From: Flectonema sp. DT1601
Taxonomy: Eukaryota
Direction: 5' to 3'
Assembly (NCBI GenBank): GCA_964019425.1
Contig: OZ025783.1
Location: 1,674,001-1,738,000, forward strand
DNA length: 64,000 nucleotides
Shown here piece by piece: positions 53,929 to 64,000 of the stretch (the first letter of the stretch is position 1; each line of letters starts with the position of its first letter). The notes below the pieces were generated by a model. The model was not told where the DNA came from. It saw only the letters and a list, made by a program, of their open reading frames with translations, and did not search any database. A program made the position numbers and the translations under genes.

Positions 53929-54090
53929 GTACATATTTTTGGTAACATTAAAGGGGTCTGTCAGCCTCAGGTTTTCTGATTTTGACTGGCATTGCAGCAC
54001 GTAATTTTTTCAAACCCTGCACTACTCCAATCACGGCTCAAACTATTTTGACCCATTTTTCAATTTTATTTTTTTTGAAGCCAGAACGGG

Positions 54091-54585
54091 AGCAGTTAAG
54101 ACCTAACTGACTGTCTGAGCTGTTACCCAAGTTTTGTGAGGAATGCCTTGAGGCGCAAATCATCAGCTTGCACTGCTTACGCCTGCCATTTGTACACTGC
54201 CCGTTGTGCCGATTGGCTGAAAAACTTTCGGTAAGCCCCCTTTGACAGGAATGTCTTCATTAATACTTGATTAGGGGTGAACGTCAGTGTTTAGAGTTTT
54301 TGTTTTCTTTTCGTGGTATGGCTGCATTAGACACATGTGTCTATTTTAAGAAAGGCTTTATATCAGTCATTTTATATGAATATTTTATTTATTACTCCAA
54401 TCTCCAATGATGCACCCGTGATCATTTCTTTCTTTTGTTTTCAACCTGTTAGTCTCTGGGAAGGTTGACAGCTGGGTATTGATCCAGTCAAAGCTACAAT
54501 AACACAATCTCTGCGATTGGGTCCTCCACTGCGGTTACCCAGACCCCTCGCAGTCCTGGACTTGCTAACTAACTAACCGACTAAG
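54091..54585 (+). repeat. Dispersed repeat family A, copy 2 (longer, ends in an (ACTA)n-like tail)
   Basis: AGCAGTTAAGAC...AACTGACTGTCT, GGTAAGCCC, GCTGGG.ATTGATCC and ACACAATCTC.GCGATTGGGT blocks are collinear with 56391-56815; tail GCTAACTAACTAACCGACTAA. Confidence 0.7.
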
Positions 54586-56390
54586 AAATTAAATAAATTG
54601 CGTAAGAAACCCTTATGTTGAGACCAGTCAAATTGCCGGACCAGACAGTTGGTACGGAAGATTTGCTTGAGCTGGCTCGCTCACCCTCATTTTCTTTTTG
54701 GTTTGGGTGTCGAGTGTTTCCTTGGTGCTACTGAATAGTTGCATCCCTTTCCTTTCGCTTTTGCTTTCTTCGACTTGACCTAAACCCTCATACGCTACAT
54801 GTAGCCAAGCTGCGTACTATTGAGGATCCAGTTTCCGTTATCAGCAATACGGAATTAGTCGTGAGCTTCTGCGTCATATTCGTTAATTAATCCTCTGCGG
54901 AGCCATTCTTGATAGATGGTAAACACCAATAAAAAGAGAGGGCCTCTGAAGTGCTTTGTGCGGTGATCATGTTGCTCACAAATAACTAGTGAGGCCTTCT
55001 TAGTTTTACAACGTAGCTTTTTAATCTAAGAGAGCCAAAACATTCAATTAATTACTGACAACATCGCAAAATATATATACGACGGTTCTAACCAAAGCAA
55101 TCAAAACATGATCTACATCCTTTTGTTGACGTTATTACTTTCGAGAACTCTAATATAAATCATCACGCACTCTTCAGCATTTTTTTGTGATCGATTTCGT
55201 ACTACTAAAATATCAATTCTACATTTCAATTCTACATTTATTTTTCGTTAGACTGACGCTGTGATTCTGTCAATCTCAATATTCCTGAAGACGGAGCAAA
55301 GAGAATTTCAGATCTGTGTCGAGCCGTGCGGCTATTTTTTTAAGGCCGCTTCGTAATATTTCCAATCGACAATTAGATTTCAAAACTGTTCAAATCTTTC
55401 TATCACAGTAGCGAATTGTTTACAGGCCATGTTCTATTACCCAACGAATGTCAACCATAAATACAATATCAACAATAGCAAGAACTTGACGTTTTCAGCG
55501 CGGAAGCTGAGTCGCTGTCGGTGTCGCGAGGCAATCATGAAATTAATGTTCAGGAAAAGTAAAATGCAACAAAAAGCAATATGAAACAAAAGCTCGTCAC
55601 ATTACCACTCACTGCGACTTATATTCGACACTCTCCCCTGGTAAGTGACTGCTTTGTTTACTTTTTATAGTTTTGTTATTTTTCACACCTGTCTTACTGA
55701 TTCTCATACCCTTCCAATATTCAACTACTACTCTTGCTGAAAACTTTAATTGTTCACCGTAACTCGTCTCTAACAACGATTCGGAGAACAATCGTAACGG
55801 ATTCATTTGCAAGAACACGGAAAACTTTTTCCTGCACGTCTGCAAAGTTGTGCAAATAACTACGAGTCGAATTCTTATCTGAACATGTTGTTTTGCCGCG
55901 AAGAGTGGTCTGGATCGAGTAGGTTGAGAATGTTTGCTGCGATCATTTATGAATCCTTTGTGAACATCGGGATCGAATATCCCACCGTGCTAACAATGCG
56001 CTATCAGTGCATTCCGTTGCAAAAACTCAAACTATTTGTCGTTCGTAGATCACTCGCCACGAATATAATAATATGTAGGTTGGATTAGTTCTTTGTATGT
56101 TTCTTTATTAATTCCCTTTCCTATTACTTATATTTTATTCTACACATATTGTCTTTCTTTCTCAATCCTTCACTCGATGGTTCGCGCTTAGAGCAAGATA
56201 ATAACGATAAGTAGTCTCCGGACCACTACCGTGACTATTCTTGATTCATGTGTTGGGGGCAGTTATTGGGGTGAGTTCCGTGCATGTCAAAAGTACATAG
56301 TAAAATATTATTTATTTTAGTGCATTTCTCGGAACAACGTCAATAAGGTTCCTAAGCGAATTTTATCGTCCGATCAAAAATACAGTCTGA

Positions 56391-56815
56391 AGCAGTTAAG
56401 ACTTAAAACTGACTGTCTCTCCCTACAGATTGGAATAGTTATTCGTGTTGCCAAAACCTTATGGTATATCTTTTAAAGCCTTTGGTAAGCCTTACACTAT
56501 TGGCAACGACCGTTGTGTCCCGATTTTTTTTATTTTGGGCGGCATTTGGCACACGTGACTATTGCATGAAGGAGGTGGAATGGAAAAGATATTTTATTTA
56601 TTACCCTACGATCATTTTGATTTTGATTTTTGTATATCGCAAGGTTTTTACTGTTTTTACATTGTCAAAGCTTTCCCTTCATCATTTCTTTTTTTTTTCT
56701 TCTACTTGTGTTTCTGCTGGGAATTGATCCTCTCAGCTGAACCTATAAAAACACAATCTCGCGATTGGGTTCTCTACTGGTGCGGGCTATGCCCGCAGTC
56801 ATCAGTTCTGGACTT
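56391..56815 (+). repeat. Dispersed repeat family A, copy 3
   Basis: Collinear blocks shared with 54091-54562 and 10750-10845. Confidence 0.7.
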
Positions 56816-58360
56816 AGAGCCAGATGATCTGCGATTCCGTCTTTCTTCCTTTTGTAATTTATTGGAGGAAGAAGAATAATTACATTGCTCTTCTGAAGTC
56901 CGTATCTTTTACTAACTTACGACAATATTAACGTTCGTGCGTTCACTTTGCTAATCCCACAGAGTTCTTTTCATTGCTCTGAGGGAAACCTTCACAATAA
57001 ATGAATTCTTTCCAAATTAACCCGAAAAAAGAAAACCGAGTTAATTATCTCAAACAATAAATATCAATATCAAGTACTAACATAGTAGCAACAACGCAAA
57101 AAGAAGTTACATCTCGTAACTCCCTGTCCCTTCAATTCAAACTGCAAGGAAGCCCACGCAATTATCAGTTGCTTCCATTCAGAGATTCTTGTGCGTTTTG
57201 TGGAACCAAGGATTAAGAAAGCTTTTCTTTGCCCTACACTGTCTTAATCCTATCTGCATTCTGGAATGCATCTCGAAATGGAAGCTTTTGAAGTGCTAAT
57301 GCTGTTTGCGCCGTTTGAATCTGAAAACCTGTACACAAGGTGGGATTGATAAAAATCTCGTGGCAAAACAAGTTTCTTTATAATACACTTGGCTGCTGAT
57401 CACTATCTAACCTTAGACATGTTGACAATCTTTAATACTGCATTATCCCCTCTTCATTTTCCTAAAACACCTGCTTACTTGTAGAAAAGTTAGCTGTCAT
57501 TCGGGCTGCTCTCTTGTAAAAACACGAGGAAGCATTATTTCCGTTATAATTTCTTTTGGACAAGGTTCCTATTATTTGTTAGTATCCTGAATTATTGTGA
57601 GTAAGTTGCCTGTACCACTCTCCACTCTTGCTCCAAGCAAGGTGAGGCAGCAGTTTAGTCACGTAAAGACAATCCCGAGTTAACTTATCTAACAACCTGA
57701 CCAACTACTTCTTTCTGCAATTTGCTATTCTTTATTCTTTTCGGGTCATACTTGCATAGATTCGATTTGAGCTATTTAAAATACAAACTCTTTCCTGTCT
57801 AGAGCATACGCTTGCTCGATACGCGATCTTCAGTACCGATCCACGGTGCGAAAGCATGGCCTAACGATCCTTTGGTCTCGCTTCGTATTAAAGAATAGTT
57901 GATCGGTGCGGAGAAGGGTTGGCGAGGTGTTGTTTTGTTTGACGGTCGATTTCTTGTCTGAATTCGTTTCTCGATATTTCATAAGATCACGCCTTTTTTT
58001 CATGTGTTTAAAAAAAATAAAAAAATAAAATTAAACTTTTCTCTCGATATTTCATAAGAAGAATATTCCGTTGTTGTTTTATGGCGACCTTTTTTTTCAC
58101 TCGCCTGTGCGACGGTTAAATTCAAAGTCTTGCTTTCCCAAGGAATCTATTTTTTATTTATTCCTAATGAATGAATCCTTTTGTTTGAGAATGGTATAGT
58201 GCTGAAACTGTGGAGTTATGTGTAGTTGTAAAGGGAATCGAAGCAAGTATTCAAAACATGCTTCCTGTATCCATAGCACCTTACCTTCAGAAAAACAACT
58301 ACATTTGTACAAATAGTCCTCTAAACTCCGTTCGAGTAACTCTTGCTTACGAACAAACTA

Positions 58361-58412
58361 ACTAGCTCCCTGTGTGGAATATAAATGCTCATCATGGAGC
58401 CTTTGAAACCGC
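58361..58412 (+). repeat. 52-bp perfect direct repeat, copy 1
   Basis: ACTAGCTCCCTGTGTGGAATATAAATGCTCATCATGGAGCCTTTGAAACCGC, identical to 61059-61110. Confidence 0.97.
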
Positions 58413-60797
58413 TACTCTACTTGCAATTGCAGTACTCAAGAACTGAATAGTTTAAAATACAACGGCCATTCTTGCGGACTCGCTATTGATTTACCAGTCT
58501 CAGAAGAACTAAGAGACTTCTTCGCACGAGGTCAAAAATTTAGAGTCCCAGTGCACCCATCAGCTGCATTAGAATCACTTGAAAATGATATTACTGAATA
58601 TATAACTCACGCATACAAGAACGTTGGCGATAACTTTAAATCGATCTTTAAAAACACAATTCTTAAACAATTGCAGCTTAAATTAAGTAAAGACTTAAGC
58701 TTTCTTGACTCACCATTATCAAATAAAGCATGGACTGAACTTCAGAATCTTCAATCTCAGTTTGTGTTTCTTAAAGTTGACAAAGGACAGCACGATATTG
58801 GTTACATGTGTAAAATAAATTATTTGCTTTTACTTCGAGAGCAGCTACAAAGTGATTCTTATGAACGCATCACATCAGACGAACCAACTCTACTAGCCAA
58901 CCTCAAGAACATGAACATTTCAATCAATGCCCGCCACTCTGATCGACTCCCACACCTATATGGAATGATTAAATTACACAAATCAGCTATCGGGATGAGA
59001 TGGATTACTGGTGTCTCATCCTTCACGGGTACAGCAGAACAACGACAATACGATAAGGATCATAATCTTGCACCTGCAACAGCAACAACATATGCGCACC
59101 AACATCTCTCTAGTATCCTTAAAAATGCGATGACTATATTGAAAGAGAAAGATATGCATTCACGGTTCAAACGATACTGGATTGTGGAATCAGATGATGA
59201 AGTCTCTAGTTCGATTAAACAGAATTTGATGGTTTTGAAAAAATTATCCCCTAAGACTTTTGATTTTACAACAATGTACACCCGCCTACCACACAACGCT
59301 ATTAAAACTAAAGTAAGTGAAGCACTGCAAGAAGCCTTTAGTTTCAAAAATATCTTACGTCTTGAATCGAGTGACCCTACACGATTCCCTTCTCTTGCGC
59401 TTGCAGAATGTCAAAAATTACTTGAATTCTGTATTGACTCCTCCTTTATTGCATTAAGAGGTTATATTTGGAGACAAACAATAGGCATTCCAATGGGTGG
59501 CAACGCCAGTAGCGATATAGCAAATCTCTACTGCTATAGAGTTGAATCCGCATATATCGATTCTTTAATTGAAGCAAAAAATCTAGACTTAGCTCGGCAA
59601 CATGACCACTCGTGTAGATACATCGACGACTTCCTCACCTGGAGTTGCGACCCTCCACCAGCAAGTCTATACTCAATGGATTACACTGATACTTCGAATA
59701 ATATTGATGATGTCTCTTATATAGGAATTCGTATCCGAATAGAGATCACTAACACAAATAAACGATGGATTCGTTTAAGTGTTAATGACAAAGCCAGGGG
59801 TTGGCATATTACGCCAACAAGGTTTACTCATCAGCATTCCGCAGCTCAAGAATCAATGGGTTCAGGTATCTTTACCACCATGATCTTACGAGCTCTAAAA
59901 ATCTGCAACAACCAGGCAGACTTTTTACAGGAACTTGAAGCGGTAACTTATAGATTACTCAACCGGGGCTATAAATCTGACAATATCAGAGCAGCATGCC
60001 TCCGCTTCATTAGCTCTCACATTGATGATGGTAATACAGCAGCTGCAATGCGTCGACGTATCAACCTTACTTTTGAGAAGTTTAGTCACAAAGTCCCATT
60101 AAGCATCGAAAAGGATACAATTAACCACACAGGCTCTACAAGCCATTCCTTGGATAAACGATTTCCACCATCCCTACATCAAACATCAGGAGAAGGTCTT
60201 CTCGGTGGAGAATGCGGATGGGCAGCGCTCAACTTCATTGCAGATCATTTATATATCGATAGAATTAACTTCAGTTTTCTGCAAAACTACCAACAGCGAT
60301 TTTATGAAGAATCTCTTAAAGTAGAACCGAACAACTCAGAGCATAAACCATCACCAGATGGTTGGTTCTCGCTACAAGTACTTAACATGGCTTGCATGAC
60401 TAAATTCAACAGAAGAATCGAGTACTTCGTTAACCCAGCAGATTTCGATTATCCTGAAGCAGCCGCAGCACTTATTCTACATAAAGCGAAAACAAGGATG
60501 ACTCACTTTATTGTTGCGCTAGTCTCATTTGAGTCCATGATCATCCGAGACATTCTTAAAGGCACAAAAGATTTAAGACTCCCTTTCGATCATTTTGACA
60601 AGATGTACCGAACTACAGAGTATAGTTTCCATATGATACCATTAAAAGCTCAGACTGATATGGATGTTACGATGACACCAGCGAATATAGGACCTTTGAT
60701 GATATGCGAAGATAAAGTAAAACGCAAATTGGATGACGACTCATCCATTAACTCGACTGTAATAGTGAAACGATCAGACGTCAAAAATTCAAATTGA
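58407..60797 (+). CDS. PLE reverse transcriptase fused to a C-terminal Josephin-like cysteine protease; open frame starts at 58407 with no ATG until 58806
   Basis: RT motifs VDKG, LPHLYGMIKLHK...MRWI, TFDFTTMYTRLPH (Asp at 59262), QTIGIPMGGNASSDIANLY, RYIDD (59616-59630), SYIGI, and thumb ending LLNRGY. Protease-like region 60171-60641. Confidence 0.88.
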   Translation, partial: NRYSTCNCSTQELNSLKYNGHSCGLAIDLPVSEELRDFFARGQKFRVPVHPSAALESLENDITEYITHAYKNVGDNFKSIFKNTILKQLQLKLSKDLSFLDSPLSNKAWTELQNLQSQFVFLKVDKGQHDIGYMCKINYLLLLREQLQSDSYERITSDEPTLLANLKNMNISINARHSDRLPHLYGMIKLHKSAIGMRWITGVSSFTGTAEQRQYDKDHNLAPATATTYAHQHLSSILKNAMTILKEKDMHSRFKRYWIVESDDEVSSSIKQNLMVLKKLSPKTFDFTTMYTRLPHNAIKTKVSEALQEAFSFKNILRLESSDPTRFPSLALAECQKLLEFCIDSSFIALRGYIWRQTIGIPMGGNASSDIANLYCYRVESAYIDSLIEAKNLDLARQHDHSCRYIDDFLTWSCDPPPASLYSMDYTDTSNNIDDVSYIGIRIRIEITNTNKRWIRLSVNDKARGWHITPTRFTHQHSAAQESMGSGIFTTMILRALKICNNQADFLQELEAVTYRLLNRGYKSDNIRAACLRFISSHIDDGNTAAAMRRRINLTFEKFSHKVPLSIEKDTINHTGSTSHSLDKRFPPSLHQTSGEGLLGGECGWAALNFIADHLYIDRINFSFLQNYQQRFYEESLKVEPNNSEHKPSPDGWFSLQVLNMACMTKFNRRIEYFVNPADFDYPEAAAALILHKAKTRMTHFIVALVSFESMIIRDILKGTKDLRLPFDHFDKMYRTTEYSFHMIPLKAQTDMDVTMTPANIGPLMICEDKVKRKLDDDSSINSTVIVKRSDVKNSN

Positions 60798-60876
60798 GCA
60801 AAAGCAAATAAACATTGCTAGCCCTATCCTGGCGAGCTCCGATGGATTTTTATCTTTGAACGATAGCAACTTCAAC

Positions 60877-60963
60877 ATAGAATGAAGTCCCTTAGAACTT
60901 ACTGATGAAGGCCTAAAAAGGGACAAGTAGTATAAGATTAAGGCCTGAAACTACATATTCTAT
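60877..60963 (+). ncRNA. Putative hammerhead ribozyme with rearranged (non-circularly permuted) strand order
   Basis: CUGAUGA 60902-60908; stem II AGGCCU 60909-60914/60941-60946; GAAA 60947-60950; stem III CUAC 60951-60954/GUAG 60927-60930; UA at 60931-60932; stem I CUUA 60898-60901/UAAG 60933-60936; extra helices 60887-60893/60918-60924 and 60877-60883/60957-60963. Confidence 0.7.
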
Positions 60964-61058
60964 TACCCTTTGATGTTAGGAAACTGCAGAAATGAATACT
61001 TTTCTTTTATTGATCTCTACTTTTCTTATTCTCACTTTTCTGTTCTAAAATTAATGAT

Positions 61059-61110
61059 ACTAGCTCCCTGTGTGGAATATAAATGCTCATCATGGAGCCT
61101 TTGAAACCGC
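61059..61110 (+). repeat. 52-bp perfect direct repeat, copy 2
   Basis: Identical to 58361-58412. Confidence 0.97.
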
Positions 61111-61453
61111 ATCCTCTTTTCTCTCTCTTTTACTACGGATCTTGGATGACGCGCAAAAGGAGGGTTCTTTCACTTTTTGTTGTCGGAATCTTGTCTGTCT
61201 ATCCATCCTGAAAGTTTGATCTATGATTCGTGAGTTGGTGGATTGTACTATTTTTCAACCAGCAAAACTAATCATAACAATGAAGGGTGGATAACAAGAT
61301 GAAATGGAACTCATGCCGTTTTAGGGATGCAGCAATGATTCTGGTGTCGATCAGGTCTTTCTTTTTTTTAATCGCGTTAATACCTTTTCTTTTTTCATGA
61401 AAATAATTTTGTAACCTGTACTTAATTACTTGACTCCTCAGCATCAAAAGAAA

Positions 61454-61885
61454 ATGGGAAAGCCACGTGGTATTAACACAGCGAGAAAGCTGAAGACCAG
61501 AAGAAGAACCCAGAAGTGGGCTGACAAGGACTGGAAGAAGGCTCACTTGAGCGTTTCAATTAAGGCGAATGTATTCGGAGGATCTTCCCACGTTAAAGGA
61601 ATCGTTTTAGAGAAGATTGGTGTCGAAGCGAAGCAGCCGAATTCGGCCATCAGAAAGTGCGTTCGTGTTCAGCTAATTAAAAACGGAAAGAAAATCCTCG
61701 CGTTCGTTCCAAACGATGGTTGCCTTCACTTTGTTGAGGAAAACGACGAAGTTCTTGTTGCAGGTCTTGGGCGTTCTGGTCACGCTGTTGGAGACATTCC
61801 CGGAGTTCGTTTCAAGATCAGTAAAGTTTCGGGTGTAGGTCTATTTGCCCTGTACCGTGAGAAGAAGGAGAAGCCACGTTCTTAG
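61454..61885 (+). CDS. RPS23: 40S ribosomal protein S23 (uS12)
   Basis: [13 protein letters not shown]...[25 protein letters not shown]...GDIPGVRFK...KKEKPRS. ATG at 61454 after pyrimidine tract + CAG. Confidence 0.98.
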
Positions 61886-62631
61886 ACTAGCAATCACCCA
61901 TCAAACGCTCTGGCTCAACATCATCTACGCCAGCTACTCTCAACTCAAATCACAGAAACTGTTCTTCAAATCTTTCGGTGATTTCATTGTTGCTTACGAG
62001 CCATGTGGTTTTAAGGGGCAATGGAATACTTAAGATGAAGTGGTATCATTAATCATCAAAGACCGGCTTGATGCCATCGCGGAGTGCCTAGTATGGCTGT
62101 CAGTGCGTTTGTATTGTTGTTCCGCATTCAGCGAAATAAATAGTCTTTGTTACAGGAAAAACAAACATAGCAGTGAGCGAGGCGGTTTTAATTGGTTGTC
62201 TGAACAATTCTGTGTATTGTGTCAAGGTAATTAGAATATTTTATTATTTACAGGTTACCCCTAGAGACAGAATAACCCGACTTTTGTAAGCACGAGGTTT
62301 CTTCGCATTTACCTCTGAACTCTTTTATAACCCTATTTCTAGTTTAGGAAGTAACACACGTAGAGAATAATAAAATCAACTTCCTTTCATCTACTCCCAC
62401 AGTAGCCATACTTATGATGATAGAATAGAGTTAAAGAGGTAACCTAAGTTCACTTTAAAAAGCTGCAGTACAATTAATTCTATAAACCCCTCCACAGAGT
62501 AGATTCAGTACGACGTCTCGAGACGGTTAGCCTTGGCGAGCTCTAGTTAACGTTTCCACTTTTTGCTACAGTTTCAACACTAGCCGTGTCAACATCCCGT
62601 CTTGTTTTACAGGAAATTACTTAAAACAACA

Positions 62632-64000
62632 ATGCAGGTTTCTGTGACATGTCCGGATTTGGGATTCGCTGCAGTGTCAGTCACGGTTAGTGTTGATTCC
62701 CTTGTGAGCGAAGTCTTGACATCGGCGGCTGGGGAGTGGGATGTCGATACGGAGGAAGTTGAACTGTCGTTCGCTGGTGACACCCTTTGCGAAGGTGAGC
62801 GACTAGCAGATCGTGGAGTGGGTGGAGACAGCGAGTTGGAGATGTGGAAGAAGCGGTTTCGTATATTCAGTAAATGCTGGTTTGTTAATGATTCAAAACG
62901 GGAGAAGCTGCTTCGTTGGATAAGAGAACACAATGAGGAATACTTATACCTTGACACCACAACATTCACAGAGGATGGTTGCCTCGATATTGAGGATGAT
63001 TTGCTTCCTTCTGATGCCGAACGGGTTTCTTTCCGCAATTCAAATTCCGTCGCCTCAGCCATCTCACAAGTTGTCACTATTGGAGAATATTTCTTGTCTT
63101 CCTGTTCACAAATCACTTGGGATCACGACACCTGCCTCCTCGCGGCGGTCCCGGACGACTTCGATAGGGGTCGACAAGACGGTGTCAAACGCAAGGGATG
63201 CGAACAACATCAACACCAACCACCACATCAAGAGCATCCGAACACTGGATGTTTCTTATCCAACAAAGAAAGAAACAGGCTGGCCCATGCCTTGAATGGC
63301 AATGGTGGAACAAGGAAGGACAGCAGAGACCGACGCCCGCGGGACGACACTCGCGACAGGGACGAGGACCGCACGGACAAGGAAGAACGCCGGCTGGCGA
63401 AACTCGAGAAGGAAAAACTCGAGTCGCTAGACGAAATCGAGGAAGAGAAGCAGCGGCTGGGGCAACAGAGAATGGCCATGGAGCAGCACCACCACCAGAA
63501 GGAAACCAACCTTCAAGGACAAGAAAAACAGTTGGAACAGCAACGCCAACACCAACAACAAGAACTGCAAAGTCAGTACCACCAACAACAGCAGCAACTG
63601 CAAAGCCACCATCAGCTGAAGGAAACGGAAAGTCTCCAGAAGGAGCAAAACCTACAGGCTCAACTCAAAGAGCAACATCAGCACCAACAGAAGGATTTGG
63701 AGAAGCAATACCGCCAACGACAACAGCAACTGGAAAGCCAGCAGCAGAAGAAGGACGCCGAGTCCGAACAGCAAGCACATTTGACTCGGTCACAACTACA
63801 GAAGGAAAAGGAATCCTTCCAGACGGAGAAGGAACGGCTCCACCTCCAGCTGGATCAGCAGCTAAGGAATGAGAAGGACCACCTCCACCGAAAGCTCAAG
63901 GAGCAGATTGGACAAGAAAAAGTCCAACAACAACAAAAGCTCCAACAGAAGGAAGACGAGATCCAACGGCGTGAGGAAGAGGTGAACCGAGGACAGCAGC
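62632..64000 (+). CDS. Open frame running off the window: ubiquitin-like domain + start of BspA-type LRR (62632-63118) fused in frame to Gln/Glu-rich coiled coil (from ~63119)
   Basis: Hand translation from ATG 62632: MQVSVTCPDLG...VSEVLTSAAGEWDVDTEEVELSFAGDTLCEGERLADRGVGGDSELEMWKK...VVTIGEYFLSSCSQIT, then ...KEERRLAKLEKEKLES...QQRQHQQQELQSQ..., no stop to 64000. Missing from the ORF track because it has no stop in the window. Confidence 0.75.
   Translation, partial: MQVSVTCPDLGFAAVSVTVSVDSLVSEVLTSAAGEWDVDTEEVELSFAGDTLCEGERLADRGVGGDSELEMWKKRFRIFSKCWFVNDSKREKLLRWIREHNEEYLYLDTTTFTEDGCLDIEDDLLPSDAERVSFRNSNSVASAISQVVTIGEYFLSSCSQITWDHDTCLLAAVPDDFDRGRQDGVKRKGCEQHQHQPPHQEHPNTGCFLSNKERNRLAHALNGNGGTRKDSRDRRPRDDTRDRDEDRTDKEERRLAKLEKEKLESLDEIEEEKQRLGQQRMAMEQHHHQKETNLQGQEKQLEQQRQHQQQELQSQYHQQQQQLQSHHQLKETESLQKEQNLQAQLKEQHQHQQKDLEKQYRQRQQQLESQQQKKDAESEQQAHLTRSQLQKEKESFQTEKERLHLQLDQQLRNEKDHLHRKLKEQIGQEKVQQQQKLQQKEDEIQRREEEVNRGQQ
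63119..63186 (+). ncRNA. Putative HDV-like self-cleaving ribozyme
   Basis: P1 GGGAUC 63119-63124/GGUCCC 63147-63152; P2 GACACC 63127-63132/GGUGUC 63181-63186; P3 GCC 63134-63136/GGC 63144-63146; L3 UCCUCGC; GG 63153-63154 for P1.1; P4 63156-63162/63167-63173; candidate catalytic C at 63175. Confidence 0.78.
63119..64000 (+). mobile_element. Probable 5' end of a non-LTR retrotransposon inserted in the UBL-LRR gene
   Basis: Abrupt change to GC-richer, T-poor sequence starting exactly at an HDV-like ribozyme, followed by coiled-coil coding sequence. RT/endonuclease are not within the window. Confidence 0.55.

Follow-up and report, generated by a model that had tools for sequence, protein, structure and literature searches.

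A Chlamys-type Penelope-like element of Flectonema carries a predicted Josephin-fold protease domain where related elements carry other deubiquitinase-type domains

Introduction

Among the described Penelope-like elements (PLEs), the Chlamys elements of Craig et al. 2021 (PMC8557442) are characterized in the accessible part of that paper by an N-terminal GIY-YIG endonuclease (EN) without CCHH and without CX2-5CxxC, a CxC motif and a DK motif without a fixed Ala. The same source reports a Josephin domain, with weak homology, in three Chlamys families of Chara, and describes tails of 30-40 bp. Here we describe an insertion of a Chlamys-type element in a 64,000-nt stretch of Flectonema sp. DT1601 (contig OZ025783.1, positions 1,674,001 to 1,738,000; the whole stretch is called the window below), and the predicted Josephin-fold cysteine protease domain that its open reading frame (ORF) carries behind the reverse transcriptase (RT).

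With the Chara braunii elements (Chlamys-1_cBra, Chlamys-4_cBra), as given in the accessible text of PMC8557442, the element shares the N-terminal GIY-YIG without CCHH, the CxC and DK-x motifs, the lengthening between motifs A and B and a Josephin-like domain in an extension at the C-terminus; 5' truncation is likewise common to both. The fusion of Josephin to a Chlamys element is therefore already in print and not new, although the preliminary description of this locus, a model's reading of the letters alone, had known of none as a standard PLE domain. Compared with what the same source gives for the Chara elements, the ORF of the window family is shorter (1,350 versus ~1,800 aa), an extra C/H-rich domain is not seen in it, its Josephin-like domain belongs to a separate subfamily and a permuted hammerhead is predicted behind its ORF. 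Moreover, relatives of the window element swap in OTU or USP domains, neither of which is mentioned in the accessible text or supplement of PMC8557442, and the named relatives of the window family are diplonemids, whereas the accessible main text contains no diplonemids or euglenozoans. In a literature search that took in few subscription papers and did not include Repbase, we found no report of OTU or USP domains in PLEs, of PLEs in diplonemids or of type-CSG hammerheads in PLEs.

Deubiquitinase (DUB)-type domains are known from other transposons: Josephin in Dualen/RandI long interspersed nuclear elements (LINEs), and OTU and VTD in Helitrons/Helentrons (accessible parts of PMC9741609, PMC6431247 and bioRxiv 10.64898/2026.06.17.732966). 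According to the accessible part of PMC9741609, the VTD domains of Helitrons have DUB activity, and one DUB class can take the place of another in these elements. The elements described here have in common with these systems a DUB-type domain fused to the transposition protein and the exchange of one class for another; what sets them apart is a PLE as carrier, a slot that follows the RT thumb on its C-terminal side and the occurrence of Josephin, OTU and USP alike in this slot. Bacterial Josephins and clippases (BpJOS, PcJOS, PaJOS) have also been described (bioRxiv 10.1101/2024.07.24.604956, accessible part).

The domain behind the reverse transcriptase

A single uninterrupted stop-to-stop frame of 796 codons (58407-60797, + strand) contains RT motifs A, B and YIDD and the thumb, followed by the protease motifs that the preliminary description had quoted. 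The two parts are as follows.

58953..60149, + strand: core and thumb of a TERT/PLE-like RT (DFTTMY of motif A from 59262; GIPMGG of motif B from 59484; YIDD at 59619-59630)
60150..60653, + strand: divergent papain-like cysteine protease domain of predicted Josephin fold (DGWFS from 60357)

The triad that had been named is present: the codons for Cys (TGC 60213, aa 603), His (CAC 60504, aa 700) and Asp (GAC 60549, aa 715) stand in this frame downstream of the RT thumb, and the His-Asp spacing of 15 residues was confirmed. A search with the protease domain returned 15 matches at E ≤ 1e-3 among 1.84 billion representatives, so the motifs are more than a chance resemblance. In the alignment built from these matches (A1, 11 sequences, no row of which is labelled Josephin) the Cys is kept in 10 of 11 rows; 10 rows extend as far as the His and Asp, which are kept in 9 of these.

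An AlphaFold2 model of the domain computed from A1 (pLDDT 83, pTM 0.82) places the Cys at the start of a helix and the His and Asp on neighbouring strands. When this model was compared with 48,161 chains by VIA-align, the best match was JOSD2 (Z 13.0, root-mean-square deviation 2.8, 129 residues aligned), followed by ATXN3L (Z 12.6, 3.0, 143 aligned) and by the bacterial Josephins BpJOS (Z 10.1) and PcJOS (Z 10.0), with the first non-Josephin at Z 9.4; Foldseek ranks 1-7 were Josephins as well. In the predicted structure, then, the likeness to Josephin that had been claimed from the letters holds. Searched against PDB sequences, the A1 profile had ATXN3L as its sole match (E 0.3), and hhalign aligned A1 with the PLE-borne Pfam Josephins at 95.7% probability over 125 columns. 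With the Josephin/MJD DUBs (ATXN3, ATXN3L 3O65, JOSD2 6PGV, BpJOS, PcJOS, PaJOS) the modelled domain shares the fold (Z 9.2-13.0), the placement of the triad, a D-G-x-F-S motif and an aromatic residue after the His. It differs from them in its low identity (8-15%, below Pfam detection), a longer segment before the Cys and the lack of a conserved oxyanion Gln.

Several results weigh against a Josephin assignment. Neither the window domain nor its family matches Pfam Josephin (PF02099), the profile that the preliminary description had proposed as a check; sister elements do match it (P0007, E 3e-10; P0089, E 1e-9). The weak Pfam matches of the window domain are to Longin (E 0.02) and Peptidase_C39 (E 0.11), and it scores 8.8 bits on a profile of six PLE-borne Josephins. 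Its look-alikes in the ESM Atlas are C39-type clusters (0.92, 141-146 shared features) with no Josephin among them, and in VIA-align non-DUB papain proteases follow directly below the Josephins (Z 8.5-9.4). Within a model of the whole 796-aa protein the domain is of low confidence. Josephins have an oxyanion Gln a few residues before the Cys; no Gln conserved at such a position was found across A1, and another residue may serve. The motif HExQ..LC is characteristic of Josephins, but the resemblance to it that had been pointed out is not a clean one, as H591-Q592 sit 11-12 residues ahead of the Cys and A1 shows no conservation of this Gln. Searched by itself, the window domain yielded nothing of use from Pfam or, with phmmer, from PDB; a search with A1 for longer homologs returned only the two families already known, and the A3 profile only one weak RT match among PDB sequences. 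In a tree of the domains the window type stands apart from the Pfam-positive Josephin type. We therefore call the domain a divergent subfamily of predicted Josephin fold and not a member of PF02099.

Co-folding of the domain with natural ubiquitin scored 0.45, compared to 0.00 for the best of three controls, with runs agreeing in at least 95% of contacts and a partner pLDDT of at least 72. In the benchmark 51 of 78 solved pairs and 2 of 108 mismatched pairs reached the same mark, and the range at or below 0.60 held only 5 of the 78 solved pairs together with all 4 passing mismatches of 180. Ubiquitin binding by the window domain is thus weakly predicted, and the pass may reflect likeness to solved Josephin-ubiquitin complexes.

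Conservation and spread of the domain

Between two families of the element, the protease domain is 65% identical, close to the EN (66%) and the RT (71%), whereas the N-terminus (50%) and the C-terminal tail (41%) have diverged further. The triad is intact in 22 of 23 proteins that span the domain (9/10, 6/6 and 7/7 in three families), as counted in three representatives and, from each of the clusters of 59, 24 and 35, the 15 members listed; the exception is a family-1 copy with a His-to-Arg change. The domain therefore is not a one-off capture, an outcome that the preliminary description had allowed for, and its sequence looks maintained. The window-type domain also occurs outside PLEs: it stands N-terminal to an APE-RT LINE ORF of Flectonema neradi (P0084), a Dualen-like position, and in two short proteins (P0083, P0085) without other Pfam domains.

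Deubiquitinase-type domains at the same position in related elements

Relatives were gathered by protein searches (12 and 17 matches) and from 77 metagenome loci and 11 loci on contigs of metagenome-assembled genomes (MAGs). RT trees were built only from sequences collected in the present analysis and were midpoint-rooted. A quick tree was made of 62 cores, leaving out L075, loci whose cores were <230 aa and 4 proteins in which the core pattern was absent; in it the Naiad-like rows split from 27 Chlamys-like rows, a clade to which the window family belongs. A careful tree was then made of 37 rows chosen from this set.

On the Chlamys-like side of the careful tree (23 rows), the position behind the RT is taken by Pfam Josephin in 7 rows, the window-type domain in 4 (one of them partial), USP in 2, OTU in 2, tentative OTU in 3 and a C39-like domain in 1 (L023, E 1.6e-4); 4 rows are unassigned. 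The Josephin rows score E 3e-10 to 8e-4, with the domain of L010 lying in another frame. As to the two OTU rows, P0064 is above the cut-off and L005 (E 0.004) has OTU structures as phmmer matches. The tails of P0073, L013, L021 and L009 are unassignable or degenerate. In most Naiad-like rows the protein stops ~155-190 aa past YxDD, and no further domain is seen there. One Naiad-like subclade, apart from the Chlamys-like clade, does have USP (L018, L040 and L041 at E 1e-25 or better; L038 is cut short). Altogether six loci have a C-terminal USP with Cys and His boxes at Pfam E 1e-25 to 1e-29 (L018, L040, L041, L050, L057, L199), L050 and L057 being outside the careful tree.

Approximately unbiased (AU) tests rejected a single-clade grouping both for the USP carriers (p-AU 0.001) and for the OTU carriers (p-AU 2e-79), and the tree requires at least 7 label changes. 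As judged from these sequences, Josephin, OTU and USP domains are shown to occupy the same slot in related elements, with repeated swaps on the RT tree. Three points temper this picture: the AU tests were made after the first tree had been seen; the three tentative OTU labels are based on a motif and a sub-threshold or absent Pfam score (E 0.058, 0.021 and none); and, because most Naiad-like relatives do without a C-terminal domain, a DUB is not required for transposition.

The survey of relatives gave some observations of its own. In L005 (850-5124) the Chlamys-like RT is followed by the OTU domain, a Cys-rich finger and a DnaJ domain (E 9e-23), and in P0095, an N-terminal-EN PLE-like protein, a PCIF1_WW-like match (E 5e-5) precedes the GIY-YIG. 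Eleven PLE loci (L198-L208) are on short contigs binned into bacterial or archaeal MAGs; these are probably eukaryotic contamination and not prokaryotic PLEs. Two loci have identical repeats at both contig ends (127 bp in L003, 123 bp in L043), probably from circularisation of tandem copies by the assembler. None of 35 candidate stretches in viral contigs was a relative.

A 5'-truncated copy of a Chlamys-type element

The placement of the element rests on its RT and on motifs in the full-length members of its family. The top 17 Foldseek PDB matches of the 796-aa model are telomerase RTs (best E 1.6e-10), which agrees with the Penelope-like RT of the preliminary description; the window protein matches neither Pfam RVT_1 nor Pfam Josephin. 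The features of the insertion are listed here.

58416..60797, + strand: 5'-truncated Chlamys-type PLE ORF, corresponding to aa 558-1350 of the full-length family protein P0026
58422..58430, + strand: CxC motif (TCNC), diagnostic of Naiad/Chlamys as defined in the accessible text of PMC8557442
58779..58787, + strand: DKG motif (DKA in Naiads)
60714..60728, + strand: basic KVKRK stretch, possibly NLS-like (nuclear localization signal), C-terminal of the protease domain
58361..58412, + strand: first copy of a perfect 52-bp direct repeat, separated by 3 nt from the point of 5' truncation
61059..61110, + strand: second copy of this 52-bp repeat, closing the insertion on its 3' side, 261 nt past the stop codon

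The window ORF is 99.4% identical over 793 aa to P0026 (tblastn; 1,350 aa) and 100% identical over 793 aa to P0020. In P0020, P0026 and the full-length protein of the sister family, P0030 (1,367 aa), a GIY-YIG is present in the same ORF by motif (Pfam E 0.14, 0.15 and 0.007, respectively), lying at aa ~238 of 1,350 in P0026. The GIY-YIG is not visible at the window locus because this copy is 5'-truncated and begins at aa 558; its start and its N-terminal GIY-YIG are gone. As it has no endonuclease, the window copy could not move on its own. The preliminary description had put the Josephin domain in the place of the endonuclease, but in this clade the EN is N-terminal, and a replacement of EN by Josephin was rejected on the full-length P0026.

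The features of the Naiad/Chlamys clade are all present (N-terminal EN, CxC and a motif A-B region lengthened by the IFD, the insertion in the fingers domain). The motif A-to-B distance is 74-75 aa in the window family; one PLE with a C-terminal EN has 64 and the other members of the clade have 80-89, so the IFD of the window family is, by this measure, short. The EN of P0026 reads VIYALFRRSDQKVVYVGQ, without CCHH and without the Cys pair, and is followed by CxC and DKG; Naiad-like loci have CxxC in the EN and DKA, and form a clade separate from the Chlamys-like one in the RT trees. By these motifs the window element is a Chlamys-type PLE. The named relatives of its family come from Flectonema neradi, Diplonema japonicum and Lacrimia lanifica, which together with the one-strand layout of the long ORFs in the window makes a diplonemid host likely, and the family appears to extend Chlamys-type elements to diplonemids. 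The 90%-identity cluster of the window protein has 59 members, and the 15 of them that are listed are 93-100% identical to it, by which the family is young and multicopy.

The 52-bp flanking repeat could be a short pseudo-long terminal repeat (pLTR) or tail, or a long target-site duplication. A basic stretch comparable to KVKRK follows the protease domain in 6 of 6 proteins printed.

A predicted type-CSG hammerhead in the 3' untranslated region

Hammerheads of the order C-S-G (CUGAnGA, cleavage-site block, GAAA) are described in the accessible text of Eckert et al. 2023 (PMC10085705) as two similar metagenomic sequences, neither in a known organism, that cleave in vitro and in which a helix joins stems I and II; the evidence for them is called weaker there for lack of covariation, and the accessible main text makes no link to retroelements. 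For Naiad and Chlamys, the accessible part of Craig et al. (PMC8557442) states that most lack a canonical hammerhead and gives 8 'HHR_half_core' families with halves 35-50 nt apart. The 3' untranslated region (UTR) of the window element contains the following predicted parts, all on the + strand.

60887..60954: predicted type-CSG (non-circularly permuted) hammerhead
60887-60893 / 60918-60924: interaction (fourth) helix, 7 bp, GTCCCTT / AAGGGAC
60898-60901 / 60933-60936: stem I, CTTA / TAAG
60902-60908: core, CTGATGA
60909-60914 / 60941-60946: stem II, 6 bp, AGGCCT
60927-60931 / 60950-60954: stem III, GTAGT / ACTAC
after A60932 (GUA): predicted cut

The cleavage strand (GTAG-TA-TAAG) is nested in loop II and pairs outward as stems III and I, and the GAAA is present, so that the blocks are in C-S-G order with stems I-III and the interaction helix all in place. 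In a scan for six permutations over 88 PLE loci and the window element, 8 of 89 gave a sense-strand match, all of them CSG, and there was one weak antisense match; shuffled loci gave none in 5 rounds, and shuffles of the window element 0 in 200. Besides the window element, the loci with a predicted CSG hammerhead are L019, L025, L028, L035, L036, L043, L060 and L201; L035 has a mismatch in stem III where L036 has none, and the strict scan does not accept it. Four of the matches are in Naiad-like tree rows and three are unplaced. The stems differ in sequence among the matches yet pair, and a fourth helix, 6-14 bp long, is present in every match; the helices were counted with a script. The order of blocks, the intact core and the extra helix joining stems I and II are thus shared with the published pair, as far as its accessible text goes; the present ones differ from it in belonging to N-terminal-EN PLE loci and in having all four helices of different sequence.

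The CSG hammerhead is not universal in these elements, judging from the loci at hand: the 11 other Chlamys-like DUB loci have none, though many contigs may end too early, and a lone CTGAnGA with nothing more follows the ORF in 4 of these 11 and in 5 of 6 USP Naiad-like loci. Rfam found no hammerhead in 54000-64000, which is what a permuted form would lead one to expect; its sole match there was to a snoRNA, by chance, at E 4. The single-strand minimum free energy fold does not form the predicted ribozyme (z -1.1), the folding program having no pseudoknot modelling. Gaps between hammerhead halves in the present set are 38-57 nt, and the CSG form may explain the HHR_half_core families; the predicted hammerhead may be the ribozyme reported as missing from these clades. 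For a different PLE, insertion in vitro did not depend on cleavage by the hammerhead (accessible part of PMC11167929).

Beyond the 3' repeat (343 nt past it) lies an intronless host gene for ribosomal protein S23 (61454-61885, + strand, Pfam E 1.5e-45); the predicted ribozyme cut is 521 nt upstream of its ATG on the same strand. All 21 ORFs of at least 200 aa in the window (1-64000) are on the + strand and uninterrupted, as in euglenozoan polycistrons, and their contents include IQ-repeat, CD36, L-lectin, PH, DnaJ, FAM221, NAD-binding and JmjC/cupin. The ORF at 62632-64000 (+ strand), which runs off the window, has an N-terminus that looks ubiquitin-like by eye and had no Pfam match, a short leucine-rich-repeat-like stretch and a Gln-rich coiled coil.

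Discussion

From its N- to its C-terminus, the full-length protein consists of a GIY-YIG endonuclease, an RT like that of telomerase and a Cys-His-Asp domain of predicted Josephin fold. In the reading that we propose as probable, this protein would bind its RNA, nick DNA and prime reverse transcription, with the Josephin-fold domain taking ubiquitin off the particle. In this scheme the endonuclease of full-length copies would make the nick in the DNA, and their RNA would be copied by target-primed reverse transcription; the predicted DUB would clear ubiquitin off its own protein-RNA particle (or off host proteins that it meets), so that the particle survives to insert; and the predicted hammerhead would cut element RNA free of read-through or tandem transcripts. 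The fold, together with the repeated choice of different DUB families for one slot, points to ubiquitin as the substrate, and because these families fill the slot interchangeably, selection would act on ubiquitin removal as such. A role against ubiquitin-mediated degradation, which was one of two functions suggested in the preliminary description, is our best inference, although the step of protection in cis is one that we purely infer.

An active DUB or ubiquitin-like-protein protease could also act in trans, on host targets such as stalled ribosomes or, where the element inserts, factors of chromatin, DNA repair or silencing. We regard this as rather unlikely, but the fold and the slot swapping are equally compatible with it, the NLS-like stretch behind the domain would suit it, and the domains of the LINE P0084 and the short proteins P0083 and P0085 indicate that the domain can work apart from a PLE RT. 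In the PLEs, however, the domain is in one chain with the RT, which would favour action near the particle, and none of the analyses run indicated a host target.

A Josephin-fold protease with another substrate than ubiquitin, for example a maturation protease for an EN-RT-protease polyprotein (the other suggested function), seems to us less probable still. The missing Pfam Josephin match with a weak C39 match in its stead, the C39-like Atlas look-alikes, the C39-like domain in the slot of the relative L023 and the failure to find a clear oxyanion Gln in A1 would all fit such an enzyme. Nevertheless, the best structural matches are ubiquitin-specific Josephins and the slot is otherwise taken by USP and OTU domains. 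Polyprotein processing in particular found no support, as there is no conserved diGly at a domain junction, and in the accessible part of PMC11167929 a PLE protein purified at full length carries out transposition in vitro as a single chain. That the domain is a mere passenger, a host DUB gene captured by 3' read-through without benefit to the element, is very improbable. In favour of it, most Naiad-like elements lack such a domain, some tails are unassignable or degenerate and one family-1 copy has lost its His; against it, the domain is conserved like the EN between families whose tails diverged to 41%, and independent captures have repeatedly yielded DUB-type domains.

Removal of ubiquitin from the particle being the reading that we prefer, a wider proposal can be put forward tentatively, at slightly short of an even chance. 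PLEs with an N-terminal EN would have a dedicated, interchangeable DUB slot behind the RT thumb that was filled independently many times by Josephin, OTU or USP, which would expose ubiquitin as the basis of a general host defence against the particles of retroelements. The domain of the diplonemids would be a new, Pfam-invisible Josephin subfamily common to PLEs and LINEs, possibly a eukaryotic clippase, and the pseudoknotted CSG hammerhead would be the ribozyme that Naiad and Chlamys were thought to lack. Type-CSG hammerheads were previously known from two orphan sequences; the predicted ribozyme would place them in a biological setting and greatly add to their covariation. On why ubiquitin proteases are captured by transposons again and again, PMC9741609, in its accessible part, only speculates. 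Three DUB classes exchanged at one position in a compact single-ORF family would amount to a natural experiment on this question, and as the near-identical full-length copies P0020 and P0026 exist, a catalytic mutant would be directly testable.

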